Source: Gemmatimonadales bacterium
Lineage (GTDB): Bacteria > Gemmatimonadota > Gemmatimonadetes > Gemmatimonadales > GWC2-71-9
Direction of reading: 5' to 3'
Length of the DNA stretch: 50,601 bases
Assembly (NCBI GenBank): GCA_038253515.1
Contig: JBBSHB010000004.1
Coordinates: forward strand, 1 to 50,601
Below, one piece after another: positions 5,008-38,302 of the stretch. Each line of letters begins with the position of its first letter. Within the stretch, counting starts at the first letter, position 1. Both the position numbers and the translations under genes were made by a program. The notes under the pieces are model-generated. The model was not told the DNA's origin and searched no databases. It saw only the letters and a program-made list of their open reading frames with translations.

Positions 5008-5049
5008 ACGGTATCCGGCCGGGGTGAGCGCTGCCGTGACCATTGTCAC
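5008..5049 (-). promoter_or_regulatory. Palindromic operator GTGAC-CATT-GTCAC (5036-5049) plus -10-like TACCGT (5013-5008)
   Basis: Same motif at 8894 and 38261; 22-nt spacer to the hexamer; upstream of the lipoprotein-fasciclin pair. Confidence 0.7.
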
Positions 5050-5209
5050 CCGTCGACCCCCCCGGGGGGCCCGAGAATTGCACGCTTGCTCCGTGGCCTG
5101 CAGCATTTGCCGCCGAGCCGCACGCGGCGGTTGATCCAGCGAGATAAACAAGTGGCGAGTATGACCTTAAGCCTTGACATCCCGGTGGGGCCAAAGGCAT
5201 ACATAGGGG

Positions 5210-5218
5210 ATTATAGCA
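5210..5218 (-). promoter_or_regulatory. Possible extended -10 promoter TGCTATAAT
   Basis: Perfect TGnTATAAT on the minus strand in an AT-richer intergenic patch; no clear -35. Confidence 0.35.
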
Positions 5219-5291
5219 GAATCTCCGCAGCGTGCTCGCCACTGCAGCACCCGGACGCACCTCGTCATCACTACCTACGGTCGGGACCTCA

Positions 5292-6845
5292 GTGCGCTCT
5301 TCGCAGCCCCTTGCCCGTTTCGCCGTGGCTCTGGCCCTCGTGGGTTGCCTGCAGAGCCACGTCGTCCCTCTGCACGCCCAGACCGATGCCCAGTGGCTGG
5401 CCGACCGGATGTCCTCCTGGTACCAGCGGGCGCTGCGCACTTCCCCGGGCGAGTGGGGCATCGCGGTGGCCGATCAGTCGGGCCAGATGCTCTGGAGCGT
5501 GAAGCCGGATCAGCCGCTCATGCCGGCCTCTACCGTGAAGCTCTTTACCACCGGATTCGCCCGCAGCGTACTCGGCGGGGGCGCGCGCCGCCCTACCCGG
5601 GTGGTCGGGGTCGGGTCGCTGGAGCCGAGGACCGGGGAATGGATCGGGAGCTGGGCGCTCGAGCTGAACGGCGACCCGTCGCTCGAGCGGGCCGAGGGCT
5701 CGGGCCCCACGCTCTATGACCTGGCCCTCCAGCTCGCCGGGGCCGGGATCCGGAAGCTCACCGGACCGCTGCAGGTCCAGAGCACCGACGGGCCCGCAAA
5801 CGCCGTCTATCCGGCGGCCTGGTCATCCCGGCATCAGGGTCGAATCTTCGCCCCTCTCATCGGCCCCCTCACCCTGCACGAAAACATCGTCTGGCTTACG
5901 GTGGCTCCCGGCACCAAACCGGGGCAGCGCGTCCGGCTCATCGAAACGGCGCCGAGCGGCATCGGATCGATGGTGACCGTCACCGCCAAGACACGGACGG
6001 GTCGGCGCTCCCGGCTGGCGCTGCGCACCCGGCTGGACGGCAGCTGGGTGGTCAGCGGAACCATCGGCATGCGGGCGGGGCCCCGACGGCTGACCGCGGT
6101 GGCCGCCGATCCGCGCGCCCTGCTGAACGCTGTCTGGGGCACGGCGCTCAACCGAGCGGGAATCAGCTGGAATCCTTCCCCCTTCATCGGCGCGCCACCG
6201 ACCGGCGGCATCCAGATCCTGGCGGAAGTGTCATCGCCGTCGCTCGACTCCCTGGCCAGCGAGATCAACCGCCGGAGCCTCAACTTCGGCGCCGAGCTCC
6301 TGTTGCAGTGGGCCGGTGGGCGCGACCGCGCCCCGGAGCTCCTGACCGACCACGTGCGCCAGGTGATCGGGTCCCCGGACGGGGTCTATCTGGTGGACGG
6401 CAGCGGTCTCTCCTACGCCGACCGGGTGACTCCCGCCGCGTTCGTCTCCTATCTCGCCAAGTTCCCTGCCACGCCGGCCGGGCGGAACTTCCCGCAACTG
6501 CTGCCGGCCAACGGCAGCGGCACGCTTCACCGCCTCAACAGCGGCTTTCCGGGTGTGGGTGTGGTGCGGGCCAAGACGGGCACGCTGGGCCGGGTCTCCA
6601 GCATCGTGGGCTACCTGGGCCGACCGGAAGGCACCTTGCTGGTGGCGCTGATGTACAACGGGGGCAGGCCCTGGGCGGCCCGGCAGGCTCAGTGGAAGCT
6701 CTTTCGGGAGCTGGGCGCCAATGGCGTCGTCATCCCCAGCGACACGCTCCCGGAGGCGCCGGTCCAACTGGGAGGTGAGGCGACGTCCCACCCGGCCTGG
6801 TGGCCGGTAAGTCCGGCCAATGCCGACTCCGCTTCCGAGCACTGA
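5292..6845 (+). CDS. dacB: D-alanyl-D-alanine carboxypeptidase/endopeptidase (PBP4, peptidase S13)
   Basis: SxxK (ASTVK), SxN (SLN), KTG and DGSGLS motifs; N-terminal signal. Start uncertain (GTG 5232 or 5292). Confidence 0.9.
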   Translation: MRSSQPLARFAVALALVGCLQSHVVPLHAQTDAQWLADRMSSWYQRALRTSPGEWGIAVADQSGQMLWSVKPDQPLMPASTVKLFTTGFARSVLGGGARRPTRVVGVGSLEPRTGEWIGSWALELNGDPSLERAEGSGPTLYDLALQLAGAGIRKLTGPLQVQSTDGPANAVYPAAWSSRHQGRIFAPLIGPLTLHENIVWLTVAPGTKPGQRVRLIETAPSGIGSMVTVTAKTRTGRRSRLALRTRLDGSWVVSGTIGMRAGPRRLTAVAADPRALLNAVWGTALNRAGISWNPSPFIGAPPTGGIQILAEVSSPSLDSLASEINRRSLNFGAELLLQWAGGRDRAPELLTDHVRQVIGSPDGVYLVDGSGLSYADRVTPAAFVSYLAKFPATPAGRNFPQLLPANGSGTLHRLNSGFPGVGVVRAKTGTLGRVSSIVGYLGRPEGTLLVALMYNGGRPWAARQAQWKLFRELGANGVVIPSDTLPEAPVQLGGEATSHPAWWPVSPANADSASEH

Positions 6846-6869
6846 GCTCCCACGCGGCCGGCACACCAT

Positions 6870-6896
6870 GAGGGCCCGACGATCGGTCGGGCCCTC
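6870..6896. terminator. Hairpin between convergent genes
   Basis: Perfect 11-bp stem GAGGGCCCGAC/GTCGGGCCCTC with a 5-nt loop; U-tract weak. Confidence 0.6.
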
Positions 6897-6919
6897 TGGC
6901 TATCCAGCCTGCCCCCCCT

Positions 6920-7645
6920 TTAAAACGTCACATGGGCCAACTGCTGTCCCTGCGGTTCGGACGAACGATTGAGCGCGGGCTCCACCGTAAGGGCCGCGCC
7001 CATGACCGGTGACCGAACCGGGGGCATCCCGAGCGTGAAGAAGGCCGGGTGAGGGGTGTCGGCGTTCACGATGACCGAACGCACCATGCCGCTCTCGGTG
7101 ATGAACCAGAACTGATAGACGTTGCCGGCGGGCGCCGGTGGGAGCCCGTGGACGACCACGCACCAGCGGTGCGACACCGGGTCCTGGAAGATCAGCAGCC
7201 CCCCGTGCCGACCCTCCATCGCAATCGGTAGCTGCACTACCTGCCGGGCACCACGCAGCACCGACAAGGTGTCCTCCAGCGCGAGGAGCCGATTCTCCCG
7301 GTCGGCCAGGACCGCACGCAACGCGTGCCGCTCCTCCCCGCCACGATACCCCGCACCAAGCGCGAGGAGCAGGGCGGCCGCCGCGACGCCGTACGGCACC
7401 CACTGTCGCCAGCGTCCGCGCCGCTCCAGGATCTCCGTCGCGGCACGCCGGGCGAAGCCGGGCGACGCCGCTTGGGGTGGGAGCGCCATGGGAAGCCAGG
7501 CGAGCTCGCGCTCCAGCCGGGCGACCGCCGCACCGCACTCCTCGCAGCGGGCCAGGTGATCGCGAAAGGTCCGCTCTTCGCCCGCTTCCAGGCTGCGCGC
7601 GACGAACCCCGCGCGGTTCTCGACGTACCAGTCGTGGGCGTTCAT
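6920..7645 (-). CDS. Membrane-anchored anti-sigma factor (zinc-binding anti-sigma motif + RskA-like C-terminal domain)
   Basis: HxxxCxxC (HLARCEEC), one TM helix, YQFWFI and ALTVEP...SSEP motifs; ATGA overlap with the sigma gene. Confidence 0.88.
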   Translation of the reverse strand: MNAHDWYVENRAGFVARSLEAGEERTFRDHLARCEECGAAVARLERELAWLPMALPPQAASPGFARRAATEILERRGRWRQWVPYGVAAAALLLALGAGYRGGEERHALRAVLADRENRLLALEDTLSVLRGARQVVQLPIAMEGRHGGLLIFQDPVSHRWCVVVHGLPPAPAGNVYQFWFITESGMVRSVIVNADTPHPAFFTLGMPPVRSPVMGAALTVEPALNRSSEPQGQQLAHVTF

Positions 7646-8289
7646 AGCACCCAATCCTTGATGGAAGCCAGCGAGACGCGAAGCTTGTCGAAGGCGAGCC
7701 GGAGCCGGGTCTTGACCGTGCCCACCGGGATGCCCAGCTCGCGCGCGATCTCCGAATGGGTGAGCCCCTGGAAGTAGGCGAGACGGACGGCCTCGCGCTG
7801 GTCAGCGGGCAGCGCGGCAAGCGCGCTGTGCACCGACTCGTGGACGTGCCATCCGGGCCGAGCGGCCTCGTCCAGCTCACCGCCCACCCGCCCGACCGGC
7901 AGGGCATCGAAGGTCTCCGCCCGTGCGTGCTTCACCTGCCAGCGCCGCCGGCGCCGCAGCCGGTCGATCGCCCGATTCCGGGCGATCCGCAGCAACCATG
8001 GCATGAGCCCTCCGGGTTCGTTCCCCAACCGGCCGATCCCGTCCCAGGCGGCGGCGAAGACCTCGAGGACCACGTCCTCCGCTTCGTCCGCATCGGCCAG
8101 CATGGACTGCGTCAGACCGAGGAGCCAGGGGCTCGCGACCTCGATCAGCTCGACCAGCGCCTGCTCCTCCCGGGCGACCAGCCGCTGGCGGAGCGAACGC
8201 TCGGTCTCCAGCGTGAACGCCTCCCGCCCGGCCCGCCCCTCCTTGGGCGGGCCGGACTTCTTTCCGGGCTGGGACTCTGATCGGGCCAC
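7642..8289 (-). CDS. ECF RNA polymerase sigma factor (SigK-like)
   Basis: Region 2 AEDVVLEVF...WLLRIARNRAID; region 4 LAYFQGLTHSEIA...GTVKTRLR. Confidence 0.93.
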   Translation of the reverse strand: MARSESQPGKKSGPPKEGRAGREAFTLETERSLRQRLVAREEQALVELIEVASPWLLGLTQSMLADADEAEDVVLEVFAAAWDGIGRLGNEPGGLMPWLLRIARNRAIDRLRRRRRWQVKHARAETFDALPVGRVGGELDEAARPGWHVHESVHSALAALPADQREAVRLAYFQGLTHSEIARELGIPVGTVKTRLRLAFDKLRVSLASIKDWVL

Positions 8290-8442
8290 GCCTATGACTG
8301 CATCGACGGGGCGCCGAGCGCAAGCCGCGGCGGGACCCGCTCGAACTAAGAACGCCGCGGCGGAAGTTCCGGTTTGCGGGAGGGGAAGGGGGGAGAGCGA
8401 ACGGCGGATGGCCGCAGGAGGCTTCCCCTGCGGCCGGATGGC

Positions 8443-8664
8443 TCAGGCGCGGCGCGCGCCTGAGGCCAGCAACACGACACCACCGACGATGGCGAGGGCA
8501 CCGAGCAGCGGCGGGACCGGAAGCGACTCCTTCTTGTCGGCGCTCGCCTGGATCGGCCCGAGATCGAGCACCTTCTCCTTGTGGGTGTAGGAGAACCCAC
8601 CGTAGGCGAGCCCGGCGATGCCCACGATGATCAGCAGGATGCCCACGATCGTGGCGGCCTTCAT
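8443..8664 (-). CDS. Small two-TM membrane protein (DUF3185-like)
   Basis: MKAATIVGILLIIVG...KVLDLGPIQ...PLLGALAIVGGVVLL; ATGA overlap with the upstream gene. Confidence 0.85.
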   Translation of the reverse strand: MKAATIVGILLIIVGIAGLAYGGFSYTHKEKVLDLGPIQASADKKESLPVPPLLGALAIVGGVVLLASGARRA

Positions 8665-8810
8665 ACGACTCGTCGTCCCTGGATCAGCTGAATGAGTGCG
8701 ATGACCACGGCGACGACCAGCAGGACGTGGATGAATCCTCCGAGCGTGTAGGAGGACACCATCCCCAGCAACCAGAGCACGAGCAGAATGACGAAGATGG
8801 TCCAGAGCAT
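8661..8810 (-). CDS. lmo0937-family small membrane protein (49 aa)
   Basis: MLWTIFVILLVLWLLG...GGFIHVLLVVAVV...GRR; GAGG Shine-Dalgarno upstream. Confidence 0.9.
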   Translation of the reverse strand: MLWTIFVILLVLWLLGMVSSYTLGGFIHVLLVVAVVIALIQLIQGRRVV

Positions 8811-8864
8811 TTTTCCCTCCTCGGTGAAACCAGCGGCCCCAGCACCCATGGCATACCCTGGGGT

Positions 8865-8907
8865 AAGGTAGGGGGGATCACGTCCGCCCCGCGGTGACAA
8901 TGGTCAC
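8865..8907 (-). promoter_or_regulatory. Palindromic operator GTGAC-AATG-GTCAC (8894-8907) plus -10-like TACCTT (8870-8865)
   Basis: The 15-mer GGTGACAATGGTCAC is identical to the reverse complement of the 5036 site; 23-nt spacer to the hexamer. Confidence 0.7.
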
Positions 8908-9071
8908 CGGTTGAGCGCGGCGTCGGTCCCCATGCTCCCCGGTGACGGCCGGACGTCTGTGCGGTCCGGAGTTGCCAGGGTGGAATCCGCGCCCTAACTT
9001 CGGGCTGCTCCTACCAAGGCGGCTCCGCACTACTCTGTGTCTCACTCAACTCATCCCCTGAGGACTTTCGT

Positions 9072-10040
9072 ATGAGAATGCTGCATTCCGGCTTCCTGCT
9101 TGCCGGAGCCGTCGCTATGACGGCGTGCGAGCAGAATACATCCCCCACTGATCGGGCAGGAGATCGCGCCCCCTCCTTGGCCGCGACCTCGACCGGCGGC
9201 AACATGCTGGTCGGACTGAACCGGCGGCTGGCGGCGCGCGGGCTCAAGGTTCGAATCGCCTCCGCCAGCTACGTGACGAGCGCCGCCAGCGGTCAGGCAG
9301 GCCAGACCATCTTCGCGTTCGATCGCGGGAACAAACACCTCGGAACCGATTACATCCCCAATGACCCACGCCGCCATCCGGGGACGAACATCACGTACCT
9401 GGTGGACCAGAGCGATGGCGCAACCCACACCGCACCAGTCCTGACCAGCGCGGAGACCGAGGGGGCGATCGATCGGGCGATGACCACCTGGGAGAGCACC
9501 ACCCGGTGCTCCAAGTTCGCCATCGACAAGGTGGCTGACCCGGGCGTGGACCCTGACCTCGTCGATGGACTGATCCTCGGCGATCCCGCACTGATCGGCA
9601 CACCCTTCTTCGCCGATATCGTGCACGCGGGGTGGGAATCGGCGGCGTTTTTCGATGCCTTGGCGCCAGGCGGAAGCCAGTTCATTCTGGCGGTTACCTT
9701 CCCGTTCATCTTCACCGACGCCGCTGGAAACCCCACTGATCTGGACCGCAATGGCGAGTTCGACACCGCGTTCAACGAGATTTACTTCAATGACGCGTTC
9801 GCCTGGGGCATCGACGTCAGCACTTTCCCGTTCGACGTGGAGACCGTCGCTCTGCACGAATCGGGTCACGGTCTGAGTCAGGCGCACTTCGGCAAGATCT
9901 TCCTGACCAACGCCAACGGACGGGTGCACTTCGCACCCTTCGCCGTGATGAACGCGGCGATCTCACGTCAGGAGCACGATCTCACAGGTACCGACCTCGC
10001 CGGGCATTGCAGCCTGTGGGGAAGCTGGCCGAACCAGTAG
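9072..10040 (+). CDS. Lipoprotein zinc metalloprotease (metzincin / matrixin-like)
   Basis: Lipobox MTA-C; HExGHxxxxxH (HESGHGLSQAH); Met-turn AVMNA. Confidence 0.8.
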   Translation: MRMLHSGFLLAGAVAMTACEQNTSPTDRAGDRAPSLAATSTGGNMLVGLNRRLAARGLKVRIASASYVTSAASGQAGQTIFAFDRGNKHLGTDYIPNDPRRHPGTNITYLVDQSDGATHTAPVLTSAETEGAIDRAMTTWESTTRCSKFAIDKVADPGVDPDLVDGLILGDPALIGTPFFADIVHAGWESAAFFDALAPGGSQFILAVTFPFIFTDAAGNPTDLDRNGEFDTAFNEIYFNDAFAWGIDVSTFPFDVETVALHESGHGLSQAHFGKIFLTNANGRVHFAPFAVMNAAISRQEHDLTGTDLAGHCSLWGSWPNQ

Positions 10041-10059
10041 GATCGCCTCTCGTTGCCAG

Positions 10060-10095
10060 ACAGGGGGCTTCGCCACCAGGGCGGGCCCCCTGTTT
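10060..10095 (+). terminator. Rho-independent terminator
   Basis: ACAGGGGGC...GCCCCCTGT stem followed by T residues, 20 nt after the stop codon. Confidence 0.65.
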
Positions 10096-10176
10096 GATGA
10101 CCGGCTAGATTAAGGCGCCTCTCCCATCAGGCTCGGTCGATGGGTACCGGCAACATCCACCCGGCACGGAGACCGA

Positions 10177-12369
10177 ATGGCCACCATCTCTGCACCCGCT
10201 CCCCGTCCGGAGGTCCAGCCCCACGAACCATTCGTTCCCGCCAGCCAATCGCCCGCGGAGCTCACACTCCGGGCGCTCGTGCTGGGTGGAATTCTCGGTG
10301 TCGTCTTCGCCGCCTCGAGCGTCTATCTCGCCCTCAAGATCGGGCTCACCGTGTCGGCCTCGATCCCCATCGCGGTGCTCTCGGTGGCCTTTTTCCGCAC
10401 GCTCGGCCGCTCGACCATCCTGGAGAACAACATCGTCCAGACTACCGGATCGGCCGGCGAGTCGATCGCGGCGGGCATCGTCTTCACGCTCCCGGCGATT
10501 CTGCTGATGGGCTACGACCTGACCGTCGGCAAGGTGGCGGTCATCGCGGTCGTCGGTGGGCTCCTCGGCATCCTCCTGATGATTCCGCTCCGGCGGGCGC
10601 TCATCGTGAAGGAGCATGGCCGGCTGACCTACCCCGAGGGCACGGCCTGCGCCGAGGTGCTCGAGGCCGGGGAGCGAGGCGGCCTCCAGGCGCGACGCCT
10701 GTTCCAGGCGTTCGGGCTCGCCTTTGCCTACAAGTTCCTGATGTCCGGGCTCAAGGTCTGGAAGGAATATCCCGGCTGGGTCTCCCGATTCTATACCGGG
10801 GCGTCGATCTCGGCCGAAGTCTCGCCCGAGCTGCTGGGCGTGGGCTATATCATCGGCCCCCGGATCGCGGGGAACCTCTTCGCCGGCGGCTGCATCGCGT
10901 ACCTGGTGCTCATTCCGGCGATCAAGCTGTTCGGCGCCGGGCTCACCAAGCCGATCTTCGCCGAGACCAAACTCATCAACGACATGAGCCCGGGTGAGGT
11001 TCGGGCAAACTTCGTGTTCTACATCGGCGCGGGCGCGGTGGCGACGGCCGGGATCGTCGCGCTGATCCGGGCACTTCCCACGATCCTCTCCGCGTTCCGC
11101 TCGGGCTTCCAGGATCTTCGCGGCAGCATGGGCGACGCGGTGGCGCGGGCTCGGACCGACCAGGACCTGCCGATCTGGGTGACCCTCGCGGGTGCGCTGG
11201 GGCTCGCGCTCCTGCTCACGGTCCTCCCGCAGCTCTCCGTCAACCTGCTGGGCGCCGTGCTGATCGTGATCTTCGGATTCTTCTTCGTGGTGGTGTCGGC
11301 GCGGATCACGGGTGAGATCGGCGTGAGTGCCAACCCGGTCTCCGGCATGACCATCGCGGCCCTCATCGGGACGACGGCGATCTTTCTCCTGATCGGCTGG
11401 ACCGGGGTGGACCATCGGGTGGGTGCCATCTCCATCGCCGGGGTCATCGCGGTTGCCGCGAGCAACGCGGGCGCCACCAGCCAGGACCTCAAGACCGGCT
11501 TCCTGGTCGGCGCCACGCCACGGCGGCAGCAGCTCGCCATCATGGTGGGGGCGGTGACCTCCGCGATGGCCATCGGCTGGACCCTCACCCTGCTCAACAA
11601 CACCTACACCAACATCGTGCCCGAGCGGCACGCGGGAGTGACCCTCCAGGCGTCCGCGCCGGGAGCGGCGGACCGCTCCATCACTACACTCGGCGAGCGG
11701 ATGACGCACGACGGGCGCCCCTGGGACGTGGTGCGGGTCAACCTGCCGATCCAGGGTGTGCTGCCGGGCAAGTACCTGGTCGAGCCGACCACGCGGGAGA
11801 TCGGCTATCTGGTCGACCCGGGAATCGGCGGGCGGATCCACGAGCTCAACGGCCGGCCGATCACCAAGCTGGACTCGCCCAAGGCGACGATCATGGCCCT
11901 GGTGACCGACGGGATCCTGACCCGGAAGCTTCCCTGGGGACTGGTGCTCATCGGCGTGTTTCTCACCTTCTCGATCGAGCTGATGGGCCTCCAGTCCCTG
12001 CCGATCGCGGTCGGCGTGTACCTCCCCATCTCCACCTCGTCCGCCATGTTCGCGGGAGGCGTGGTCCGCTGGCTGGTGGAGCGGCGGACCCGCGGCAGCG
12101 ACCGGTCGCTGGCCAAGGTCGAGTCCGGTCCCGGGGTCCTCTTCTCGAGTGGGCTCATCGCGGGCGGCGCGCTCGCCGGGGTGGCGATCGCGGGGATCGC
12201 CGCGGCGCTGGCCCGCCGGGCGGAGGTGGCGCAGGTGCCCGCGGCGGACTACCTGGCCAACATGGCGGGACTGCAGAATGCGCTCGGATCGGTCTCTCAG
12301 AACGATCTGGTGGCGTTGGTCCTCTTCGCCAGCCTGGCAGCGGTGCTCCACCGGGTCGCGAGTCGCTAA
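10177..12369 (+). CDS. OPT-family oligopeptide transporter
   Basis: YLALKIGLTVSASIP, ENNIVQT, YPEGTACAEVL, NPVSGMTI and QDLKTG motifs; many TM helices. Confidence 0.95.
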   Translation: MATISAPAPRPEVQPHEPFVPASQSPAELTLRALVLGGILGVVFAASSVYLALKIGLTVSASIPIAVLSVAFFRTLGRSTILENNIVQTTGSAGESIAAGIVFTLPAILLMGYDLTVGKVAVIAVVGGLLGILLMIPLRRALIVKEHGRLTYPEGTACAEVLEAGERGGLQARRLFQAFGLAFAYKFLMSGLKVWKEYPGWVSRFYTGASISAEVSPELLGVGYIIGPRIAGNLFAGGCIAYLVLIPAIKLFGAGLTKPIFAETKLINDMSPGEVRANFVFYIGAGAVATAGIVALIRALPTILSAFRSGFQDLRGSMGDAVARARTDQDLPIWVTLAGALGLALLLTVLPQLSVNLLGAVLIVIFGFFFVVVSARITGEIGVSANPVSGMTIAALIGTTAIFLLIGWTGVDHRVGAISIAGVIAVAASNAGATSQDLKTGFLVGATPRRQQLAIMVGAVTSAMAIGWTLTLLNNTYTNIVPERHAGVTLQASAPGAADRSITTLGERMTHDGRPWDVVRVNLPIQGVLPGKYLVEPTTREIGYLVDPGIGGRIHELNGRPITKLDSPKATIMALVTDGILTRKLPWGLVLIGVFLTFSIELMGLQSLPIAVGVYLPISTSSAMFAGGVVRWLVERRTRGSDRSLAKVESGPGVLFSSGLIAGGALAGVAIAGIAAALARRAEVAQVPAADYLANMAGLQNALGSVSQNDLVALVLFASLAAVLHRVASR

Positions 12370-12370
12370 G

Positions 12371-29219: not shown

Positions 29220-29289
29220 GTTCGAAACTACTCCTTAACGGTCCCCGTTCTGGGGGAGAATGATGCCGACATGAATTCGCGCTGTGTCT

Positions 29290-29305
29290 TGCACCGTCCG
29301 TGCCA
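29290..29305 (-). promoter_or_regulatory. Sigma54 -24/-12 promoter upstream of lon
   Basis: TGGCAC-GGACG-GTGCA on the minus strand, GG-N10-GC spacing, about 70 nt before the ATG. Confidence 0.65.
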
Positions 29306-29595: not shown

Positions 29596-31479
29596 ATGAC
29601 CGACCCGGCCGCTAAGCCGCTTGCCGCCCGCCTTGGCGACGCGCTGGGAGACGCTTACACGATCGAAGGGGAGATCGGTCGAGGCGGCATGGGCGTGGTC
29701 TATCGGGCGCGGGACGAGCGGCTGCAACGCCGAGTGGCTATCAAGGTCCTGCCGCCGGAGCTCGCGTTTCAGCGAGACATCCGGGAGCGCTTCACTCGAG
29801 AGGCGCAGACGGCGGCCCGGCTGTCGCACCCGCATATCGTCCCGATCCATTCGGTCGGTGAGGGCGCCGGCCTGGTCTACTTCGTGATGGGGTACGTGGA
29901 CGGGGAATCGGTCGCTGCCCGGATCCGGCGGCGCGGCCGGCTACCGGTGGACGAGGCCCGGCGCATCATGAAGGAGTCGGCCGACGCCCTGAGCGCCGCC
30001 CATGCCCTCTCGATCATCCATCGCGACATCAAACCGGACAACATCCTGCTCGAGGGCACCCGCGGGCGGGTCATGGTCACCGATTTCGGCATCGCCAAGG
30101 CGTTGTCCGCCACGTCAAGCGCGACGCTCACTGGCGCGGGCGTGGCCATCGGAACGCCGGCCTTCATGAGCCCGGAGCAGGCAGCCGGCGAGCGCGAGAT
30201 CGACGGCCGCTCGGACGTCTACAGCCTCGGCATCGTGGCGTACCAGATGCTCACCGGCGAGCTCCCCTTCAACGCGCCGACGGTGGCGGGCATCCTGATG
30301 AAGCAGATCACCGAGCCCGCTCCCGACCTGCGCGCCAAGCGGGGTGACGCGCCGGAGGATCTGGCGCTGGCCGTCACCCGCTGCCTGGAGAAGGATCCGG
30401 AGAACCGCTGGCCCAGCGCCGATGCGCTTCGACGTGCATTGGAGAGCCGCACCGTGTCGGGCTACCGACCGACCGGCACCGGGTGGAAGTCGCGCCCGGC
30501 CGAGAATCAGCGGCCCTCCGCGCCGATTGGCGAGCGCCCGCGCGGCGGATTCGAACGCAGGCCGCTGGGAGGGGCCAGGCCGCTACCCGCGCCGCGGATG
30601 CCCGGCTCGCCCGACGCGAGGCGCCGCGACTATCGCGGCAGGAAGGATCGCTCCGACGAGCTGGTCCCCGATACTGGGGAGCCCCGGATCGTGCAGAAGG
30701 TCCGGGGACAGTTCGCCAGTTGGGCGGCCGTGTCGCTCGGCTGTATGGGCATCAACGTCGCCACCGGCATCGATCATCCGTGGTTCCTGTTCCCGACCTT
30801 CGGCATGGGGCTCGGGCTCCTGCGCAACTATGCCCAGCTCTGGCAGGCGGGTTACAGTTGGCGCGACGTCCTCAGCCGGCCTCCCGCGCCCGACGCCGTC
30901 GAGACCACGATGGTGAAGGGGGTCCGGGTCGCCCGCCAACTGCCGCCGCCCAGCGCCGAGGACTACGGGGCCCAGCTCGCCGCCATCCAGCAGGTGCAGA
31001 GCGATCGTCAGGCCATCCTCAAGCTCATGGAGCGGCTGCCGGCGTCGGAGCGGAAGATGCTGCCCGAGATTCAGCAGACGGTCGACGGCCTCTACGAGCG
31101 CGCCACCGACCTGGCGCGGACGCTCCACGCGATGGACAGCAACCTCGATGTACAGGGGCTGGCCCAGATCGAGGAGCGGATTGCCGGGCTGGCCAGGGAG
31201 CCCGATGATCCGGAGCGGGCCCGCCGGCTCAACCTGCTCGAGCGTCAGCGGCAAACCATCTCCGACCTCCAGGGACGGCGGAGCCAGGTGGCGAGTCACC
31301 TCGAGTCCTGCGTCCTGGCCATGCAGAACGTGCGGTTCGATCTTCTGCGCCTGCGCTCGGCCGGCGTGGCCGCGGTCCTGGGCGACCTGACGCAGGCGAC
31401 CCAGCAGGCCAAGGCGCTCTCCCGGGACGTCGACAACGCCATTGCCGCCGCCGGGGAGATCCGGGAAGCGATGAAGTAG
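29596..31479 (+). CDS. Hanks-type Ser/Thr kinase with a two-TM hairpin and C-terminal coiled-coil domain
   Basis: GRGGMGVV, VAIK, HRDIKPDN, DFG and GTPAFMSPE motifs. Confidence 0.92.
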   Translation: MTDPAAKPLAARLGDALGDAYTIEGEIGRGGMGVVYRARDERLQRRVAIKVLPPELAFQRDIRERFTREAQTAARLSHPHIVPIHSVGEGAGLVYFVMGYVDGESVAARIRRRGRLPVDEARRIMKESADALSAAHALSIIHRDIKPDNILLEGTRGRVMVTDFGIAKALSATSSATLTGAGVAIGTPAFMSPEQAAGEREIDGRSDVYSLGIVAYQMLTGELPFNAPTVAGILMKQITEPAPDLRAKRGDAPEDLALAVTRCLEKDPENRWPSADALRRALESRTVSGYRPTGTGWKSRPAENQRPSAPIGERPRGGFERRPLGGARPLPAPRMPGSPDARRRDYRGRKDRSDELVPDTGEPRIVQKVRGQFASWAAVSLGCMGINVATGIDHPWFLFPTFGMGLGLLRNYAQLWQAGYSWRDVLSRPPAPDAVETTMVKGVRVARQLPPPSAEDYGAQLAAIQQVQSDRQAILKLMERLPASERKMLPEIQQTVDGLYERATDLARTLHAMDSNLDVQGLAQIEERIAGLAREPDDPERARRLNLLERQRQTISDLQGRRSQVASHLESCVLAMQNVRFDLLRLRSAGVAAVLGDLTQATQQAKALSRDVDNAIAAAGEIREAMK

Positions 31480-31491
31480 CGGGCACCGAGG

Positions 31492-33618
31492 CTAGAACCT
31501 CGCCGTGTCCTCCATGGCCGTGCGGAGCGTCTGGACTTGGGGCAGGATCACGTCCTCCAGCTCCGGGGCGTAGGCCACGAAGGTATCGGTGGCGGCGACC
31601 CGCTTCACCGGAGCGTCGAGCCAGGGGAACGCCTCGTCGGCGATCCGGGCGGCGATCTCGGCGCCATACCCCCAGGAGAGCGAATCCTCGTAGGCCACGA
31701 TGGCGCGACCGGTCTTCTTGACCGAGGCATAGATCATGTCCCAGTCCACCGGGGAGAGGCAGCGGAGGTCGATCACCTCGACGCTGATCCCGCTGCTCTC
31801 CTCCACCTGCTTGGCCGCCCACAGCGTCCGCTGGACCAGAGCCCCGTAGGTCACCACCGTCAGATCGGTCCCCTCGCGTACCAGCTTCGCCTTGCCGAGC
31901 GGGATCATGAAGTTGGGGCCGGGATTGGGGGCCTTGTTGTAGGTCTGGCGGTAGAGGTGCTTGTGCTCCAGGAAGAGCACCGGATCGTCCGACCGGATGG
32001 CGGTGCGAAGCAGGCCGTTTGCGTCGAGCGCGTTGGATGGGCATACGACCCGGAATCCGGGCACTCCGGTGAAGATCGCGGCGCCGGTCTGGGAGTGGTA
32101 CACCGACCCACCCCTGAGATAGCCACCGTAGGTGACCCGGACGACCACCGGAGCCGAGAACGCGTTGTTGGAGCGCCAGCGGATCAGCGCCAGCTCGTTG
32201 CGGAGCTGCATGTACGCCGGCCAGATGTAGTCGAAGAACTGGATCTCGACCACCGGCTTGAGTCCGCGGGTGGCGAGGCCGACCGCACGACCGATAATGT
32301 TGGCTTCGGCCAGCGGCGAGTTGTAGACCCGCGCGCTGCCGAAGGCGCGCTGGAGACCCCAGGTCACCTTGAAGACTCCACCCTTCCCCTTCACGTCGGC
32401 AAGACTGCTCTCCCGACTGCAGTCCGCGACGTCCTGGCCGAACACGACGATCCGCGGGTCGCGCGCCATCTCGTCCCGGAGACAGATGTTGAGGAGGTCG
32501 ACCATGGTGGTGGGATCGCCGGCGAATCGGGGATCGTCCTCGGTATCGAACTGCTCCGAGGTCGGGTCCACGTCCGGCGAGTACACGTAGTGGAAGATCG
32601 TGTCCGTCCCCGGCTGGGGTGAGGCCAGCGCGACGTCGGTGGCCACCTGCACTTCTTCCGCCACCTGCTGCGCCACCAGATCGAGCTCCGGCTGCGACGC
32701 GATACCCTGCTCCATGAGATACCTGGGGAAGCGGGTCAGGGGATCGCGCTCGGCGTCGGCCTTGCGCTCCGCCGGTGTGCGATACTGCACCTCGTCGTCG
32801 GACAGCGAGTGGCTGTAAGGACGGATCACGTGCGCGTGGACCAGCGCCGGGCCCTTCCGGGCGCGGGCGTACTCCACGGCCTTGGTCACCACGTCATACG
32901 ACGCGAGCACGTCGCAGCCGTCCACCTCCTGAATCAGCAGCCCGGGGAATCCGGTGAGCAGCCGGGAGATCGAGCCGCCGGCCGTGTTCACCTCCACCGG
33001 CACCGAGATGGCGTAGCCGTTGTCCTCGACCAGGAAGACGACGGGCAGCTTGAGGTTGGTGGCGGTGTTGAGGGCCTCCCAGAACTCGCCCTCACTGGTG
33101 GTACCGTCGCCGGTGGTGCAGAGCACCACCTCGTCCCCCTGGATCAGCTCGTCGCGATCGGGGATCCCCTCGATGGTGGAATACCGCAGCCACGCCTCCG
33201 CACAGCCGACCGCCTGGAGGAACTGGGTCCCGGTGGGGCTCGACGCACTCACGATGTTGAGCGCCTTGTGACCCCAGTGGGACGGCATCTGCCGCCCACC
33301 GGAGTTGGGATCATCCGCCGCACCGACGGCGGAGAGGAGCTGCTCGGTGGCTGTCATGCCGAGGCCGAGGCAGAGCGCGCGGTCGCGGTAGTAGGTGTAG
33401 AACCAGTCGTAGGCCGGGCGAAAGATCTTGGAGGCGGCGGCGAGCACACCCTCGTGCCCCGCGCCGGAGATCTGGAAGAAGATGCGGTTCTGCCGCTTGA
33501 GCTGGATTTCCTTGTCGTCGATCCGCCGCGCGAGCAGCATGATGCGGTAGAGGTCGAGCAGGTCCGCCTTCTCCAGCTTGGCGGACGCCCGGGCGCGGGT
33601 GGAGGTACGTGTGGCCAT
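31492..33618 (-). CDS. 2-oxoacid (probably 2-oxoisovalerate) dehydrogenase E1, fused alpha+beta subunits
   Basis: TPP motif GDG...[21 protein letters not shown] and YHSQ. Confidence 0.93.
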
Positions 33619-33785
33619 CGTACTCGGGGAAAAGGGTCGCGGTCGCCGTGCTGCCGGGAACGACCGGAAGATACTTCCCCGAGAGGGGTCCTAGCGAGTT
33701 TCGGCGGGGGCGGCGAGGAGCTCGGGCAGCCGGGCGAACCGGACCCCCAGCACGACGATGGCCGCAAGTCCCGCGGCGCGCCCGC

Positions 33786-33996
33786 TCAATTGCGCCAGTC
33801 CACCGGCTTCACCTCGGCGAGCACACCCTCGAGGTCGTTGAACCGGACGGCCTTCGGCTCCGCGGGCATGGGGGGGCTCGAGAGCCCGACCGTACACGAT
33901 CAGGTCCGGTGGGCTCCTCGACGGCGCGCGGCCGAAGGCGAACAGGCCTATCAACCCGACGACCAAGGACCCGAGCAACGGGGCGCGGGGCGGCAT
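33786..33996 (-). pseudogene. Probable chimeric gene remnant or frameshifted small secreted protein
   Basis: Signal peptide + PDLIVYGR in one frame; MPAEPKAVRFNDLEGVLAEVKPVDWRN* in another, switching near a 7-nt homopolymer at 33870-33876. Confidence 0.5.
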
Positions 33997-34004
33997 GGAG
34001 CCCC

Positions 34005-34247
34005 TCAGCGGAGTTTGGTGAGACGTCGGATGGCTTCGAGCTGCTCCAGTGCGCTCCCGCCCGAGGCCGCAGGGGCCACCGAGAACAGATCGCGGATGTC
34101 GAGCAGGATCTCCAGCATCAGCTGGTCTCGCATGTAGGCGCTTTCGATGTCGATCATGCGTCCGGGGTCTTCGGTGGCCTTGGCCCGGTCGTAGGATTCG
34201 CGGTAGATCGACTCGAGATTGGCGAGGATGCGTTCACGCGGGCGCAT
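34005..34247 (-). CDS. Hypothetical protein (80 aa)
   Basis: MRPRERILANLESIYRE...LEILLDIRDL; helical, GC3-biased. Confidence 0.8.
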   Translation of the reverse strand: MRPRERILANLESIYRESYDRAKATEDPGRMIDIESAYMRDQLMLEILLDIRDLFSVAPAASGGSALEQLEAIRRLTKLR

Positions 34248-34582
34248 GCGGTCGAGTCCGGAATGCGGGAAGGTCTCTGGAGCGGTGCCCCATAGTAATG
34301 TGAAGCCTGCGGCGCGGGTACCGCGAGCTGCGGTTTGCATTCGCGACACTCAAAACCTCTTTGGTGCGGATCCGGAACGGATGGGTGGACGACTGGCCGA
34401 GCTACTGACTCGTCGGCGGCGATCCACTACGCTGCGACCGGCGGACCTGCCCAAGGCCAGAGCGGGAGCTGCGGTACCGGTACCGCAACCTGTGGTTCGC
34501 CCTCGGCGGCGCCCTCGAAGCCAACCCACCCCCCAGCCGTTGAAGGCGATGCAGGATAGCAGGTTGCCGGTTTCAGATCCGC

Positions 34583-34597
34583 TGGCACGGGGCCTGC
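34583..34597 (+). promoter_or_regulatory. Sigma54 -24/-12 promoter upstream of the pilin-like gene
   Basis: TGGCAC-GGGGC-CTGC, GG-N10-GC spacing. Confidence 0.6.
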
Positions 34598-34611
34598 CAA
34601 ATTGCCCATCC

Positions 34612-35073
34612 ATGCGAACCCACCCCTATTTCGCACCGCGATCTCGGTCGGGCGTCGGCCTCATCGAGGTCAGTCTCGCCCTGATCATGCTCGGCGTGCT
34701 CACGCTGATTGGCATCCCAAGGGTGCGGCAGACCGTCGCCCGCCACCGGGTCGACCTGGCGACGGCGCTGGTGGCGTCCGATCTGGAGAACGCGTTCGCG
34801 ACCGCCCAACGGGAGGGGAAGCCACTCCGGCTCGCCTGCACCTGCGAGAGCGCCCGCTATCGGCTGACGGACCGGTCGAGCCGCACGGTCCGCCTCGCCC
34901 GCGCGCTGACCGACAGCAGCTACGCGGTGAAGGGCCTGGCCTTCTCGACTACCCCCGTCGACATCTTCCCTTCGGGGATCGCGTCCTCACCGGATACCGT
35001 GACGATCTCCGCCGGCGACTACGCGCGCCGGATCACCATGACCACCGCGGGTGAGGTGAAGATTCTCCCCTGA
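34612..35073 (+). CDS. Type IV pilin-like protein (FimT/GspH-type)
   Basis: Basic leader, then G|VGLIE with Glu+5 and a hydrophobic helix ending in P; C-terminal FPSG...RRITMTTAGEV. Confidence 0.8.
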   Translation: MRTHPYFAPRSRSGVGLIEVSLALIMLGVLTLIGIPRVRQTVARHRVDLATALVASDLENAFATAQREGKPLRLACTCESARYRLTDRSSRTVRLARALTDSSYAVKGLAFSTTPVDIFPSGIASSPDTVTISAGDYARRITMTTAGEVKILP

Positions 35074-35135
35074 GCCCCGGTCCCGCGATATACTTCTCGC
35101 TGTTCTCAGCCCCGATCATCGTCCCGAGCAATCCC

Positions 35136-35657
35136 ATGGCACTGACAGACAAGACCGTTCTCTTCTTTGCCGGCCCGCTCTACGAGGACCTCGAGCTGTG
35201 GTATCCCAAGATCCGGCTCGAGGAGGAGGGGGCCCGCACGGTCATCGCTGGAACCGGCGAGAAGACCTACCAGGGCAAGCGGGGGTATCCCCTGACCGTG
35301 GACACCAGCGTTGACGCGATTTCCGCCGCCGAGTTCGACGGTCTCGTAATCCCCGGCGGATACGCCCCGGATATCATGCGCCGCTCGAAGAAGCTGCTCC
35401 AGCTCACCCGGGAGATCTACGAGGCCGGGAAGCCGGTCGCATTCATCTGTCACGCGGGCTGGGTACCGATCTCCGCCGGCATCGTGCGCGGCAAGCGGGG
35501 CACCAGCGTCGGCGCCATCAAGGACGATCTGGTGAACGCGGGGATGCTCTGGGAGGACAGCCCGGTGGTGGTGGACGGGAACCTGATCTCCTCGCGCACC
35601 CCCGCCGATCTGCCCCAGTTCATGCGCGCCCTGATCCAGGCCCTCGGCCGCCGCTGA
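35136..35657 (+). CDS. PfpI/DJ-1 family protein
   Basis: YEDLE, IPGGYAPD, ICHAG and SRTPADL motifs. Confidence 0.93.
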   Translation: MALTDKTVLFFAGPLYEDLELWYPKIRLEEEGARTVIAGTGEKTYQGKRGYPLTVDTSVDAISAAEFDGLVIPGGYAPDIMRRSKKLLQLTREIYEAGKPVAFICHAGWVPISAGIVRGKRGTSVGAIKDDLVNAGMLWEDSPVVVDGNLISSRTPADLPQFMRALIQALGRR

Positions 35658-35658
35658 G

Positions 35659-35976
35659 ATGTCCCTCAGCGATGCGCAACGCCGGGTCGACGGCTGGATC
35701 GGCCAGTTCGAGGAGGGCTACTTCCACCCCCTCACCAACCTGGCCCGCCTCACCGAGGAGGTGGGGGAGCTGGCTCGCGAGGTGAACCACCGCTTCGGTC
35801 AGAAGACGAAGAAGCAGGAGGAAGCCGAGGGAGACCTGGCCATGGAGATGGCGGACATCCTCTTCGTGCTCATCTGCATGGCCAACCGCGAGGGGATCGA
35901 TCTCCAGACCGCGTTCGACCGGATGATGGAGAAGGTGGAGCGGCGGGACGCGGACCGGTGGACCCGGAAGCCGTAG
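35659..35976 (+). CDS. MazG-like nucleotide pyrophosphohydrolase (YpjD-like)
   Basis: LTEEVGELARE...EMADILF. Confidence 0.92.
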   Translation: MSLSDAQRRVDGWIGQFEEGYFHPLTNLARLTEEVGELAREVNHRFGQKTKKQEEAEGDLAMEMADILFVLICMANREGIDLQTAFDRMMEKVERRDADRWTRKP

Positions 35977-35979
35977 CCC

Positions 35980-36885
35980 TTACTCCCAGTCCTCCGGGGC
36001 GGTCTCCAGCTCCTCCAGCAGCACCAGATAGCTCACCAGTCGGTCGGCCTCGACGGCTCCTTCCGAGACAGCAGCGCGAATCCGGCAGCCCGGCTCGGAG
36101 CGGTGGCGGCAGTCGGCGTACCTGCACTCGCCGATATAGGGTCGAAAATCCGGGAAACAGCTATCCAGCTGCGTGGGATCGATTCCCCAGAGCCCCACCT
36201 CGCTGAAACCAGGAGTGTCCACCAGATAGCCGCCCGCCTCGAGCGGGACCATCACCGCCGACACGGTGGTGTTCTTGCCGCGGCGTCCCTTGGCGCTGAT
36301 TTCCCCGATGCGCAGTTTGAGGCCCGGCTGCACCTGGTTGAGCAGGGTCGATTTCCCCGCTCCGGACGGTCCGGTCACCACCGAAATCCGGCCCGTCAGG
36401 GCGGCGCGCAGGGCGTCGATTCCCTCACCGGTACGGGTACTGGTGCAATGGACAGTGTACCCGGCCCGTCGGCACCGCTCCGCGAGGGCCTCGGCCGGCC
36501 CGAGGTCGACCTTGTTCACCACGACGGCCGCGGGGATCTCGTTGGCTTCGGCCACCACGAGGAGCCGGTCGATCAGCTGAGGTATGGGTGGGGGATCCGC
36601 CGCGGCGGTCACCACGAAGACCTGGTCGATGTTCGCGGCGACCGGCCGGGTTCCCCGTCCCGCGGGAGTCCGCCGCTCGAGCAGCGTGGTGCGGGCCTCG
36701 ACCCCGACGATGCCGTTGAGCGCGCCCCCGGGATCCGGCTCGAGGTGTACCCGGTCGCCCACCACGACGTGCGGCAGGCCCCGCTTGGCGCGACCGGTGA
36801 GCACCGCACGGACCTCGCCGGCCCCCGTGGCGATGCGATAGACCGCGCCGTCTCGCTCCAGCACGGTGCCGAGGATGCCGCTCAC
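35980..36885 (-). CDS. rsgA: Ribosome small subunit-dependent GTPase A
   Basis: Circularly permuted order NKVD, GPSGAGKS, DTPG; Zn finger CRYADCRHRSEPGC. Confidence 0.95.
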   Translation of the reverse strand: MSGILGTVLERDGAVYRIATGAGEVRAVLTGRAKRGLPHVVVGDRVHLEPDPGGALNGIVGVEARTTLLERRTPAGRGTRPVAANIDQVFVVTAAADPPPIPQLIDRLLVVAEANEIPAAVVVNKVDLGPAEALAERCRRAGYTVHCTSTRTGEGIDALRAALTGRISVVTGPSGAGKSTLLNQVQPGLKLRIGEISAKGRRGKNTTVSAVMVPLEAGGYLVDTPGFSEVGLWGIDPTQLDSCFPDFRPYIGECRYADCRHRSEPGCRIRAAVSEGAVEADRLVSYLVLLEELETAPEDWE

Positions 36886-37196
36886 CACTCCGCGGGTGCC
36901 CGGGCGATCGCCTCTTCCAGCGCCGCCTTCACGTCGAAGAGCGACAGCGCCTTCAGTCGATCGCCCGCCTGCTCCGAGGTCTGGCCCCAGGCGAGCGTCT
37001 CGGTCTCCAGGTGGCCGGTGGGGCGGTCGCCCGCGGGGGACCAGCGGACGAAGAGCAGGGCGGCGCCGTAGAGTCCCCGGAGGTCAGGCTCGTCCTCCAC
37101 ATAGATCGCCACCGAATAGGCCTGGCCGTCGCTCCCGCCGAAGGCGGCGGCGCGCTCGTGCTTCTCCATGTACCCGCCCAGCGTCAGCTCGCTCAC
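36882..37196 (-). CDS. Hypothetical protein (104 aa)
   Basis: GTGA overlaps with both neighbours; SELTLGGYMEKHER...LLFVRW. Confidence 0.8.
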   Translation of the reverse strand: MSELTLGGYMEKHERAAAFGGSDGQAYSVAIYVEDEPDLRGLYGAALLFVRWSPAGDRPTGHLETETLAWGQTSEQAGDRLKALSLFDVKAALEEAIARAPAEW

Positions 37197-38122
37197 CGTC
37201 CTGGCACCGACTCCCGTACGACATTGCCCAGCAGGAACGCGATGTTGGCGGGCCGCTCGGCCAGCCGTCGCATGAGGTAAGGATACCACTGGGTCCCGAA
37301 GGGGATGTAGACCCGCATGTTATGTCCGGCCCGGCGAAGCCGCTCCTGCAGGTCGCGCCGGACGCCGTACAGCATCTGGAATTCGTACCGCTCGTTGACG
37401 ATGCCCTGCCGCCGGACGAACTCGCGAGCGTGCCCGATGATCGCCTCATCATGGGTGGCGAGTCCCGGATAGTTGCCCCGCTGAAGCAGCCGTTCCATCA
37501 AGCTCACATAGCTCCGGTCCACCTCCGACTTCTCGGGGAAGGCGACGGCCGGCGACTCCAGGTAGGCGCCCTTGCAGAGACGCACCCGCGCGCCCATCGC
37601 GATCAGCTCCTCGATGTCGCGCTCGGAGCGGCGCAACATGGCCTGGATCACCACCCCGCAGTGTGCTGCGTAGGCCCCGAACAGGCGGTTGGCGAAGAAG
37701 TCGAGCGTCCGCTGAGTGTACGCCGAGCCTTCCATGTCGAGCCGTACGAACCCGCGGAGCGCCTTGGCCTTTTCCAGGATCATCGTCATGTTGGCGGCGC
37801 AGCGCTCTTCACTGATGTCGAGGCCCATCTGGGTCAACTTGACCGAGACGTTCACCTCGACCCCGCCCGCCGCCATGCAGTCGAGCATCCGCAGGTACTG
37901 ATCTCGCGCCGCCGTCGCCTCGGCCTCCGCCGTCACGCTCTCGCCGAGCAGGTCGAGCGATGCCGTGATGCCCCGGCGACTCAGCACCTTGGCGGCCTCG
38001 ACCGCCTGCTCGATCGTCTCCCCGGCGACGAAACGGGAGGCGAACCTGCGCGCGAGTCCGTTCCGACGCACGAAGTTGAAGACCCCCCGCCGCTCGGAGA
38101 GCCAGAGCAGTCCCTGACGCAT
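37193..38122 (-). CDS. Monofunctional proline dehydrogenase
   Basis: RFVAGE, LDLLGE, SVKLTQMG, RLCKGAY, ATHD and YLMRRLAERPAN motifs. Confidence 0.95.
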   Translation of the reverse strand: MRQGLLWLSERRGVFNFVRRNGLARRFASRFVAGETIEQAVEAAKVLSRRGITASLDLLGESVTAEAEATAARDQYLRMLDCMAAGGVEVNVSVKLTQMGLDISEERCAANMTMILEKAKALRGFVRLDMEGSAYTQRTLDFFANRLFGAYAAHCGVVIQAMLRRSERDIEELIAMGARVRLCKGAYLESPAVAFPEKSEVDRSYVSLMERLLQRGNYPGLATHDEAIIGHAREFVRRQGIVNERYEFQMLYGVRRDLQERLRRAGHNMRVYIPFGTQWYPYLMRRLAERPANIAFLLGNVVRESVPGR

Positions 38123-38260
38123 GATCACGGTCGGCACCCCGTCGAAGCCGGTGAGGGGCGGCGGGGCCGCCCGAAATGGCTCCCGAAGGTAGCCGCTCGG
38201 CGAAGTGGAGTGTAGAGGCGGAGACGGGTCGCCTCGGATCGTGAATCTTTATGCACCGGT

Positions 38261-38302
38261 GTGACTTACGTCACCTTGTGCCGACCGGGTTGCCGGTATC
38301 CT
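38261..38302 (+). promoter_or_regulatory. Palindromic operator GTGAC-TTAC-GTCAC (38261-38274) plus -10-like TATCCT (38297-38302)
   Basis: Extended site TGTGA-N6-TCACC is one mismatch from the CRP consensus; 22-nt spacer; upstream of topoisomerase IB. Confidence 0.7.

Follow-up and report, generated by a model that had tools for sequence, protein, structure and literature searches.

CRP-type palindromes at class II distance from housekeeping-type -10 hexamers point to a probable cyclic-nucleotide CRP regulon in a Gemmatimonadales genus

The window, by which we mean the whole stretch of 50,601 nucleotides analysed here (contig JBBSHB010000004.1 of the Gemmatimonadales bacterium assembly GCA_038253515.1; our contig C4 of genome G000, which comprises 3.26 Mb in 248 contigs with 69% GC and is 92.7% complete), contains three copies of the 14-bp palindrome GTGACNNNNGTCAC, each followed 22 or 23 nt downstream by a -10-like hexamer. 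Based on sequence comparisons, we consider it likely that the three palindromes are class II sites at which a cyclic-nucleotide CRP replaces the -35 element. Candidate promoters of the class II type number ~12-30 per genome in this uncultured soil genus of the Gemmatimonadales, and we conclude that they make up a conserved CRP-box regulon with class II architecture, i.e. an instance of a well-known type of system in an unstudied phylum. To our knowledge, transcription control has hardly been studied in Gemmatimonadota, which are an abundant and largely uncultured soil phylum. Our literature search found nothing joining Gemmatimonadetes and cAMP receptor protein, and no Gemmatimonadota CRP regulon was found at the level of titles and abstracts.

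A first-pass annotation of the window had described the palindrome in three intergenic regions, with 15 identical bp shared by two copies, a TAnnnT hexamer after 22, 23 and 22 nt, no good -35 and few matches expected by chance. All of these observations were reproduced. The 14-mers of boxes 1 and 2 are reverse complements of each other and, together with one matching flank base, account for the 15 identical bp; the best match to TTGACA at the -35 position of boxes 1, 2 and 3 is 3/6, 1/6 and 1/6, respectively. In 100 dinucleotide shuffles of the window, the exact palindrome occurred on average 0.04 times per shuffle, and no shuffle reached the three copies observed. The boxes and hexamers are:

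5036..5049, no strand: CRP-type box 1, GTGACCATTGTCAC, exact palindrome, intergenic
5008..5013, minus strand: -10-like hexamer TACCGT, 22 nt downstream of box 1, predicted start ~5001
8894..8907, no strand: CRP-type box 2, GTGACAATGGTCAC, exact palindrome, intergenic, reverse complement of box 1
8865..8870, minus strand: -10-like hexamer TACCTT, 23 nt downstream of box 2, predicted start ~8858
38261..38274, no strand: CRP-type box 3, GTGACTTACGTCAC, exact palindrome, intergenic
38297..38302, plus strand: -10-like hexamer TATCCT, 22 nt downstream of box 3, predicted start ~38309

Across G000, in which our own crude codon-usage gene caller classed ~87% of the sequence as coding, we counted 14 exact palindromes, all but two of them (12/14) intergenic; thus, the genome-wide intergenic enrichment on which the earlier proposal depended was found. 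Among all 1024 palindromes composed of a pentamer, a 4-nt spacer and the reverse complement of the pentamer, this bias (many intergenic and few coding sites) is unique, and for the GTGAC palindrome it is confined to the N4 spacer. One-mismatch variants are intergenic at 43 of 152 sites, with substitutions tolerated mainly at position 5. The more general pattern GTGA-N6-TCAC is intergenic at 47 of 107 sites, compared to 9/40 for N5, 7/26 for N7, 3/21 for N4 and 8/41 for N8. The bias of the general pattern is found at N6 only, and we regard GTGAC-N4-GTCAC as the strongest subclass of a CRP-type box, i.e. an inverted GTGA/TCAC core (GT-N10-AC) with the half-sites exactly 6 bp apart. The outer T/A of TGTGA/TCACA is not conserved in the G000 boxes.

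Within 45 nt downstream of the 47 intergenic boxes, TAnnnT is present ten times at a spacer of 22 and twice at a spacer of 23, and any other offset from 0 to 44 has 0-2 occurrences. For the composite pattern, i.e. a GTGA-N6-TCAC box, a spacer and TAnnnT, the counts in G000 are:

Spacer N21: 0 mismatches, 0 intergenic and 1 coding; 1 mismatch, 5 intergenic and 5 coding
Spacer N22: 0 mismatches, 10 intergenic and 0 coding; 1 mismatch, 12 intergenic and 3 coding
Spacer N23: 0 mismatches, 2 intergenic and 0 coding; 1 mismatch, 6 intergenic and 1 coding
Spacer N24: 0 mismatches, 1 intergenic and 0 coding; 1 mismatch, 2 intergenic and 4 coding

The pattern TTGACN-N17-TAnnnT has 64 matches in G000, 60 of which are intergenic (N16, 18/18; N18, 13/18; few at other spacers), and this sharp N17 peak supports that TAnnnT is the housekeeping sigma-70-type -10 element in this genome. 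The 12 perfect class II candidates match TTGACA at 1-3 of 6 positions, i.e. a weak or absent -35 lies under the box and is combined with a housekeeping-type -10. No position of the 22-nt spacer is conserved across 48 composite promoters of four species. Counted from the first base of the -10 element, the centre of the box is 29.5 bp upstream, which corresponds to -41.5 for a predicted start 7 nt past the hexamer (-10 element at -12 to -7). According to a passage of the review PMC10187061, only class II promoters have a 22-bp interval from the CAP site to the second -10 base, and this equals the spacing in G000 if the 16-bp form of the site is counted. Altogether, the proposal of a CRP-type operator at class II distance from a -10 element is supported by the genome-wide spacing peak as well as by conservation upstream of orthologues and a putative cognate CRP with an R-E-x-x-x-R helix, both of which are described below.

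The genes downstream of the three boxes are:

4529..4939, minus strand: 136-aa lipoprotein-like open reading frame (ORF), first gene behind box 1; no Pfam or NCBIfam family
3654..4517, minus strand: fasciclin-domain protein, second gene of the box-1 operon; PF02469, E 8.7e-20
8661..8813, minus strand: DUF5670/lmo0937-family 50-aa membrane protein; PF18919, E 4e-15; NF033488, 61.4 bits against a cut-off of 30
8443..8664, minus strand: 73-aa small membrane protein overlapping the DUF5670 stop codon; sub-threshold Pfam matches only and no NCBIfam family
38335..39402, plus strand: bacterial topoisomerase IB (TopIB); PF01028, E 5.5e-39; PF21338, E 5.3e-26

We examined conservation of the boxes upstream of orthologues of these genes. 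Of the 17 genus-level TopIB loci, counting that of G000, 16 have a GTGA-N6-TCAC box within 400 nt upstream of the gene; the TopIB proteins of the genus are 65-73% identical to that of the window and the inner N6 of their boxes is variable. In 11 of the 16 loci with a box, TAnnnT is also present at 21-24 nt. In TopIB loci outside the genus or paralogous, the box was found in 0/8, supporting that conservation of the TopIB site is limited to the genus. Upstream of DUF5670 genes, a composite with at most one core mismatch is present at 22 of 27 genes in 12 genus genomes. The fasciclin protein was found in only one of 25 other genus genomes searched (G176), where the operon is preceded by GTGACTGTGGTCAC-N22-TACCGT in the same geometry as at box 1; thus, the box-1 operon is accessory and its promoter allows a single comparison only. 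In total, the conservation upstream of orthologues that the first-pass annotation had made a test of its proposal was observed for TopIB, for DUF5670 and for one fasciclin operon.

Alternatively, CRP could bind mainly as a repressor or roadblock, or in a class I or III arrangement, and the hexamer at 22 nt would not be the promoter in use. In favour of this possibility, TAnnnT at 22/23 nt is lacking for half of the exact intergenic palindromes, box 3 is located between the divergent genes for proline dehydrogenase (37193-38137, minus strand) and TopIB, and conserved tandem boxes between crp and the following MBL-fold hydrolase gene are too close to the latter for a class II promoter to fit. 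However, the sharp 22-nt peak together with the conservation at 22/27 DUF5670 genes would be unexpected unless the hexamer is functional; moreover, the box promoters have no -35 element, in contrast to the strict TTGACN-N17 of housekeeping promoters, and the composite read backwards has ~0.5 matches per genome compared to 18 for the forward composite. We therefore regard repression or class I/III binding as unlikely for the set as a whole, and class II activation as the probable arrangement.

Analysis of the crp locus bears on the same question. The crp gene of G000 has the canonical promoter TTGACA-N17-TATCGT (L001:985-1013), and 63 of 68 orthologous loci carry TTGACN-N16-18-TAnnnT ahead of crp. 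At the other end of the gene, 61 of 68 orthologues with full flanks have a GTGA-N6-TCAC box that overlaps the stop codon (C2:55368-55381 in G000, corresponding to L001:1725-1738; L145-L223). It is followed 8 nt on by a degenerate second box (CGTGAYT...) and ~55 nt downstream by the conserved GAGG-ATG of the MBL-fold hydrolase gene. Because the interval before the latter is too short for a class II promoter, the box at the crp stop codon may be a feedback or roadblock site; its conservation also ties the motif physically to the gene of the candidate regulator. The MBL-fold gene could not be assigned as a cyclic nucleotide phosphodiesterase (NF041851, 42.9 bits against a cut-off of 400; RNase Z models similarly below cut-off). 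Among the best 80 CRP loci, 79 are from Gemmatimonadales, Gemmatimonadaceae or Gemmatimonadota metagenome-assembled genomes (MAGs); one, L191 (92% identity), is labelled as a Bacillota MAG and is probably a mis-binned or mislabelled contig.

The product of this crp gene is the only protein of G000 with both a cNMP_binding and an HTH_Crp_2 domain (C2:54691-55368, 226 aa). HTH_Crp_2 matches are located on contigs C2, C112, C61, C18 and C56, in agreement with the earlier statement that the regulator is not encoded in the window; the weak matches on C61, C18 and C56 look MarR- or ArsR-like by eye and were judged not to belong to the Crp family. The recognition helix of the C2 CRP, RETVSR (RETVGR in CAP), is of the R-E-x-x-x-R/K type, and the phosphate-binding cassette FGE...RSA is kept. 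According to a passage of PMC10187061, helix positions 1, 2 and 6 read TGTGA and position 5 is N, T or S outside the gamma-proteobacteria; RETVSR keeps the reading positions 1, 2 and 6. The best solved relatives of the C2 CRP are M. tuberculosis CRP (E 2e-38), the T. thermophilus Crp-family regulator 4ev0, GlxR-type regulators (C. glutamicum GlxR, ~3e-34) and E. coli CAP (1e-27). G000 also encodes one class III nucleotide cyclase.

We suggest a mechanism in which a homodimeric CRP-family activator would bind each palindrome and thereby occupy the place of the -35 element, and in which RNA polymerase would be recruited and activated by the bound dimer in the manner known from class II promoters of E. 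coli. The most likely regulator would be the C2 CRP with a cyclic nucleotide as the switch, and the targets may constitute a stationary-phase, stress or envelope-remodelling programme that is turned on by the cyclic nucleotide.

For a phyletic survey, a draw of 150 Gemmatimonadota genomes was scanned for the composite pattern and for CRP, which was counted as found at E<=1e-40; the composite read backwards served as built-in control. The sums include the unpublished genomes G081 (22 composite matches) and G120 (1), and locus L068 is from the unpublished genome G003; our conclusions are independent of G081, G120 and L068. The results by identity to the C2 CRP are:

CRP at least 89% identical: 11 genomes, 198 composite matches, 6 control matches
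CRP 77-80% identical: 9 genomes, 39 composite matches, 2 control matches
CRP 66-73% identical: 31 genomes, 85 composite matches, 10 control matches
CRP 48-65% identical: 39 genomes, 106 composite matches, 17 control matches
No CRP at E<=1e-40, same family: 8 genomes, 4 composite matches, 1 control match
No CRP, sister families: 6 genomes, 16 composite matches, 14 control matches
No CRP, other families: 46 genomes, 39 composite matches, 23 control matches

Thus, composite promoters average 18 per genome where the CRP is at least 89% identical, with ~0.5 per genome for the backwards control, and their number drops to background where CRP was not found. The eight genomes of the same family without a CRP match at this threshold are G042, G063, G064, G068, G089, G101, G118 and G130. 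In the congener G042, which is 99% complete, neither CRP nor TopIB was matched and the number of composites is 0; the single DUF5670 gene of G042 has no box, as is also the case for DUF5670 in two other CRP-less genomes. TopIB was not found in the five CRP-less genomes searched (G042, G101, G063, G130 and G068), which suggests that the regulator and its target TopIB were lost together.

These data also bear on whether another factor reads the palindrome, i.e. a second Crp-family protein, Rex, or a LuxR/DosR-type regulator. The second Crp-family protein is encoded on contig C112, which also carries two exact sites; however, its helix is RRATVTE, without the Glu and the last Arg. Among five genomes searched, this paralog was found in G141 only (30 composite promoters) and not in the promoter-rich G167, G104 and G090 (20, 13 and 19 composite promoters) nor in G042 (0). 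The first-pass annotation had read the conserved inner C/G as a sign of a distinct paralog. We found no support for this idea, since G000 has a single protein with cNMP_binding and HTH_Crp domains, the C112 paralog was not found in three of the four promoter-rich genomes searched and the inner C/G is only preferred. DosR boxes share the 5-N4-5 layout with the palindrome; however, the DosR/NarL-type pattern GGGAC-N4-GTCCC has 9 matches in G000 of which just 1 is intergenic, and the half-site in the window is GTGAC.

Rex boxes share the GTGA-N6-TCAC skeleton with the class II boxes, and a rex gene is present in G000. Rex-type boxes (TTGTGAA-N4-TTCACAA) exist separately in this genome: a perfect one, TTGTGAAACATTTCACAA, is located at C23:1286-1299, 13 nt upstream of a rex-like gene (C23:652-1272, L224; PF06971, 67.6 bits), and similar ones are at C12:35571, C55:4825 and C109:4271. 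They differ from the class II boxes in having A at position 5 and TT/AA flanks. The window boxes have C at position 5, and across the 48 class II promoters this position is C in 27, G in 16, T in 5 and A in 0; E. coli CRP boxes prefer T at position 5. The inner C/G is therefore a preference and not a requirement. We suggest that position 5 probably separates CRP boxes from Rex boxes, with C>G>T and never A serving to avoid the latter. Moreover, the phyletic pattern of the promoters tracks the cNMP-binding CRP. In total, helix, distribution, position 5, motif and spacing led us to discard the C112 protein, Rex, a DosR-like regulator and an alternative sigma factor as factors recognising the boxes, and we consider it improbable that a protein other than the C2 CRP is responsible.

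In the case of the sigma factor, palindrome and hexamer would together form a bipartite promoter of, e.g., the ECF sigma factor encoded at 7642-8289 (minus strand), 154 nt downstream of the box-2 DUF5670 operon, and the targets do resemble alternative-sigma stress regulons of other phyla. However, both half-sites are equally conserved and related by dyad symmetry, the proximal half-site is 22 nt from the hexamer in contrast to the 16-18 nt of -35/-10 pairs in G000, the -10 element is of the housekeeping TAnnnT type, and loss of the motif tracks loss of the crp gene. We regard this explanation as very improbable, and the palindromes as probable sites of the C2 CRP.

In G000, perfect composites precede the three operons of the window, YflT with DUF2382, a MEDS-domain protein, an initiating sugar transferase, DUF4126, an EEP-nuclease/PLD operon, a second DUF5670 gene followed by a LigD primase-polymerase and a rhomboid protein, and two ORFs of unassigned family; one site has no ORF. 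If one mismatch is allowed, the targets further include a third DUF5670 gene, DUF4142, M48 and M20 peptidases, an Rrf2 regulator, a response regulator and others. The recurrence of these targets was determined for all 48 composite matches of three other species, for 43 of which a gene was called within 350 nt. TopIB, DUF5670 and the sugar transferase recur in 3/3 species, and EEP with PLD, DUF4142, the response regulator, GNAT and an outer-membrane beta-barrel protein each recur in 2/3; YflT, DUF892, SurE with a Ser/Thr kinase and a glycogen-debranching-type enzyme are single cases. The conserved target set includes single-domain response regulators. No mention of DUF5670 was found in the literature search.

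Several of the target families belong to stationary-phase or general-stress regulons in other phyla, where the general-stress function is carried out by RpoS, SigB or EcfG. A stress or stationary-phase reading of the regulon is therefore reasonable and would fit the conserved targets; it is based on gene content, with the link of these families to stress coming from other phyla. A more far-reaching possibility, which we put forward tentatively and regard as doubtful, is that the single CRP of the genus is the master activator of a general-stress/dormancy programme, with a regulon ~5- to 30-fold larger than in sister genera that was lost together with the regulator in at least one species, and with position 5 having evolved to insulate the boxes from Rex. 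Such a programme would cover LigD primase-polymerase and TopIB (DNA-end repair and topology), small membrane proteins, YflT/DUF2382, DUF892, SurE, and envelope polysaccharide and lipid remodelling.

Compared to E. coli CAP at class II promoters, the system described here has the same palindromic GTGA-N6-TCAC core and the same Arg, Glu and Arg at helix positions 1, 2 and 6, and the site likewise overlaps the -35 region without a usable -35, with 22 bp from the 16-bp site to the second -10 base (the CAP spacing as given in a passage of PMC10187061). It differs in that the outer T/A is not conserved, in that position 5 follows C>G>T and the helix is RETVSR instead of RETVGR, and in its targets, which are not catabolic operons. 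M. tuberculosis CRP (Rv3676) and C. glutamicum GlxR are among the closest solved relatives and have in common with the C2 CRP a high-GC host, a single global cNMP-binding CRP and the FGE...R(S/T) cassette; however, their regulon content differs from the regulon described here, and M. tuberculosis CRP has the helix RETVNK and a Thr-Asn pair in the C-helix.

The closest functional analogy is to T. thermophilus SdrP (TTHA1359) and D. radiodurans DdrI, which are CRP-family proteins linked to stationary-phase or stress genes. PMC8465061 gives the SdrP consensus as AWTGTRA(N)6TYACAWT, and a passage of PMC11253593 reports DNA binding independent of cAMP for both SdrP and DdrI. By contrast, the C2 CRP keeps the phosphate-binding cassette, and SdrP (2ZCW) is not among its 60 best solved matches. 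A precedent for the inner C/G is provided by S. meliloti Clr, for which a passage of PMC10187061 reports the operator HGTYHC-N4-GRWACA, with C and G conserved around the 4-nt spacer, the helix RPKVNR and no conservation of half-site position 4; the boxes described here have an invariant GTGA and no more than a preference for the inner C/G. Because the mechanism is a textbook one, the value of these observations lies in annotation and hypotheses and not in a new concept. They provide a testable promoter grammar for the clade, i.e. TTGACN-N17-TAnnnT for housekeeping and CRP box-N22-TAnnnT for activated promoters, as well as a candidate regulator with a defined box, and a list of conserved targets that would place the uncharacterised families lmo0937/DUF5670 and DUF4142, along with bacterial topoisomerase IB, under cyclic-nucleotide signalling.

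Several observations weigh against class II activation by a cyclic-nucleotide CRP or restrict its reach. The split into intergenic and coding sites depends on the crude gene caller, which missed, e.g., the 136-aa ORF 4529-4939. The placement at -41.5 rests on an assumed -10 element; a search of sequencing runs with 3600-9100 of the window listed no RNA run, and one run of unstated type contained a fraction of 0.27 of the words. Among the 12 intergenic exact palindromes, 6 have no TAnnnT at 22/23 nt (C5 40302, C21 4999, C29 1458, C48 7514, C79 2559 and C113 1510); these may act differently, by repression or as class I sites, or may have a deviant -10 element. Similarly, five TopIB loci (L036-L039 and L043) have the box without TAnnnT at 21-24 nt. 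In the alignment with M. tuberculosis CRP, the C2 CRP has Ala-Asp in place of the C-helix pair Thr-Asn, and the aligned residues contact the base of cAMP in other CRPs; the effector is thus uncertain and may be cAMP or another cyclic nucleotide. G143 encodes a 71%-identical CRP with an identical helix and has 0 strict composite matches, so that the presence of CRP alone is not enough to predict a large promoter set. The Spearman coefficient of 0.64 between CRP and composite matches overstates significance because related genomes are not independent. Finally, G000 encodes six region-3-containing sigma factors (Sigma70_r3 matches), and a sigma-based stress response may exist as well.

Some further features were observed at or near the boxes. 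The ATG of the 136-aa ORF at 4939 is preceded by GGAGG. The label DUF3185-like that had been given to the 73-aa protein was not reproduced, as only sub-threshold matches to DUF202, DUF308 and DUF4383 were obtained. The ECF sigma factor gene is overlapped by ORF 6900-7907 (minus strand), which has no family and is a possible anti-sigma factor. An Rfam scan of the whole window gave no family at gathering score. TTATGCA (38249-38255) is located 5 nt upstream of the TopIB box and is conserved in G000 and five other genus genomes; the TopIB box may have a second role at the divergent proline dehydrogenase gene. In these five other genomes (L036-L039 and L043), in which TAnnnT at 22 nt is missing, a second degenerate box (TTTGTGT...CCACGG) is present ~30 nt downstream of the TopIB box.

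Elsewhere in G000, C7:33545 (plus strand) and C72:13428 (minus strand) are near-identical one-mismatch composites (box-N22/23-TAGAAT) with similar downstream sequence and no called ORF, and may represent two copies of a small RNA gene. At C130:7482 and C130:4259 (both minus strand), 3.2 kb apart, ~50 nt are almost identical and contain a box-like GCGAC...TCAC followed by TAGGTT or TAGCTT; one of these promoters is located ahead of an epimerase fragment and the other ahead of an M48 peptidase gene.

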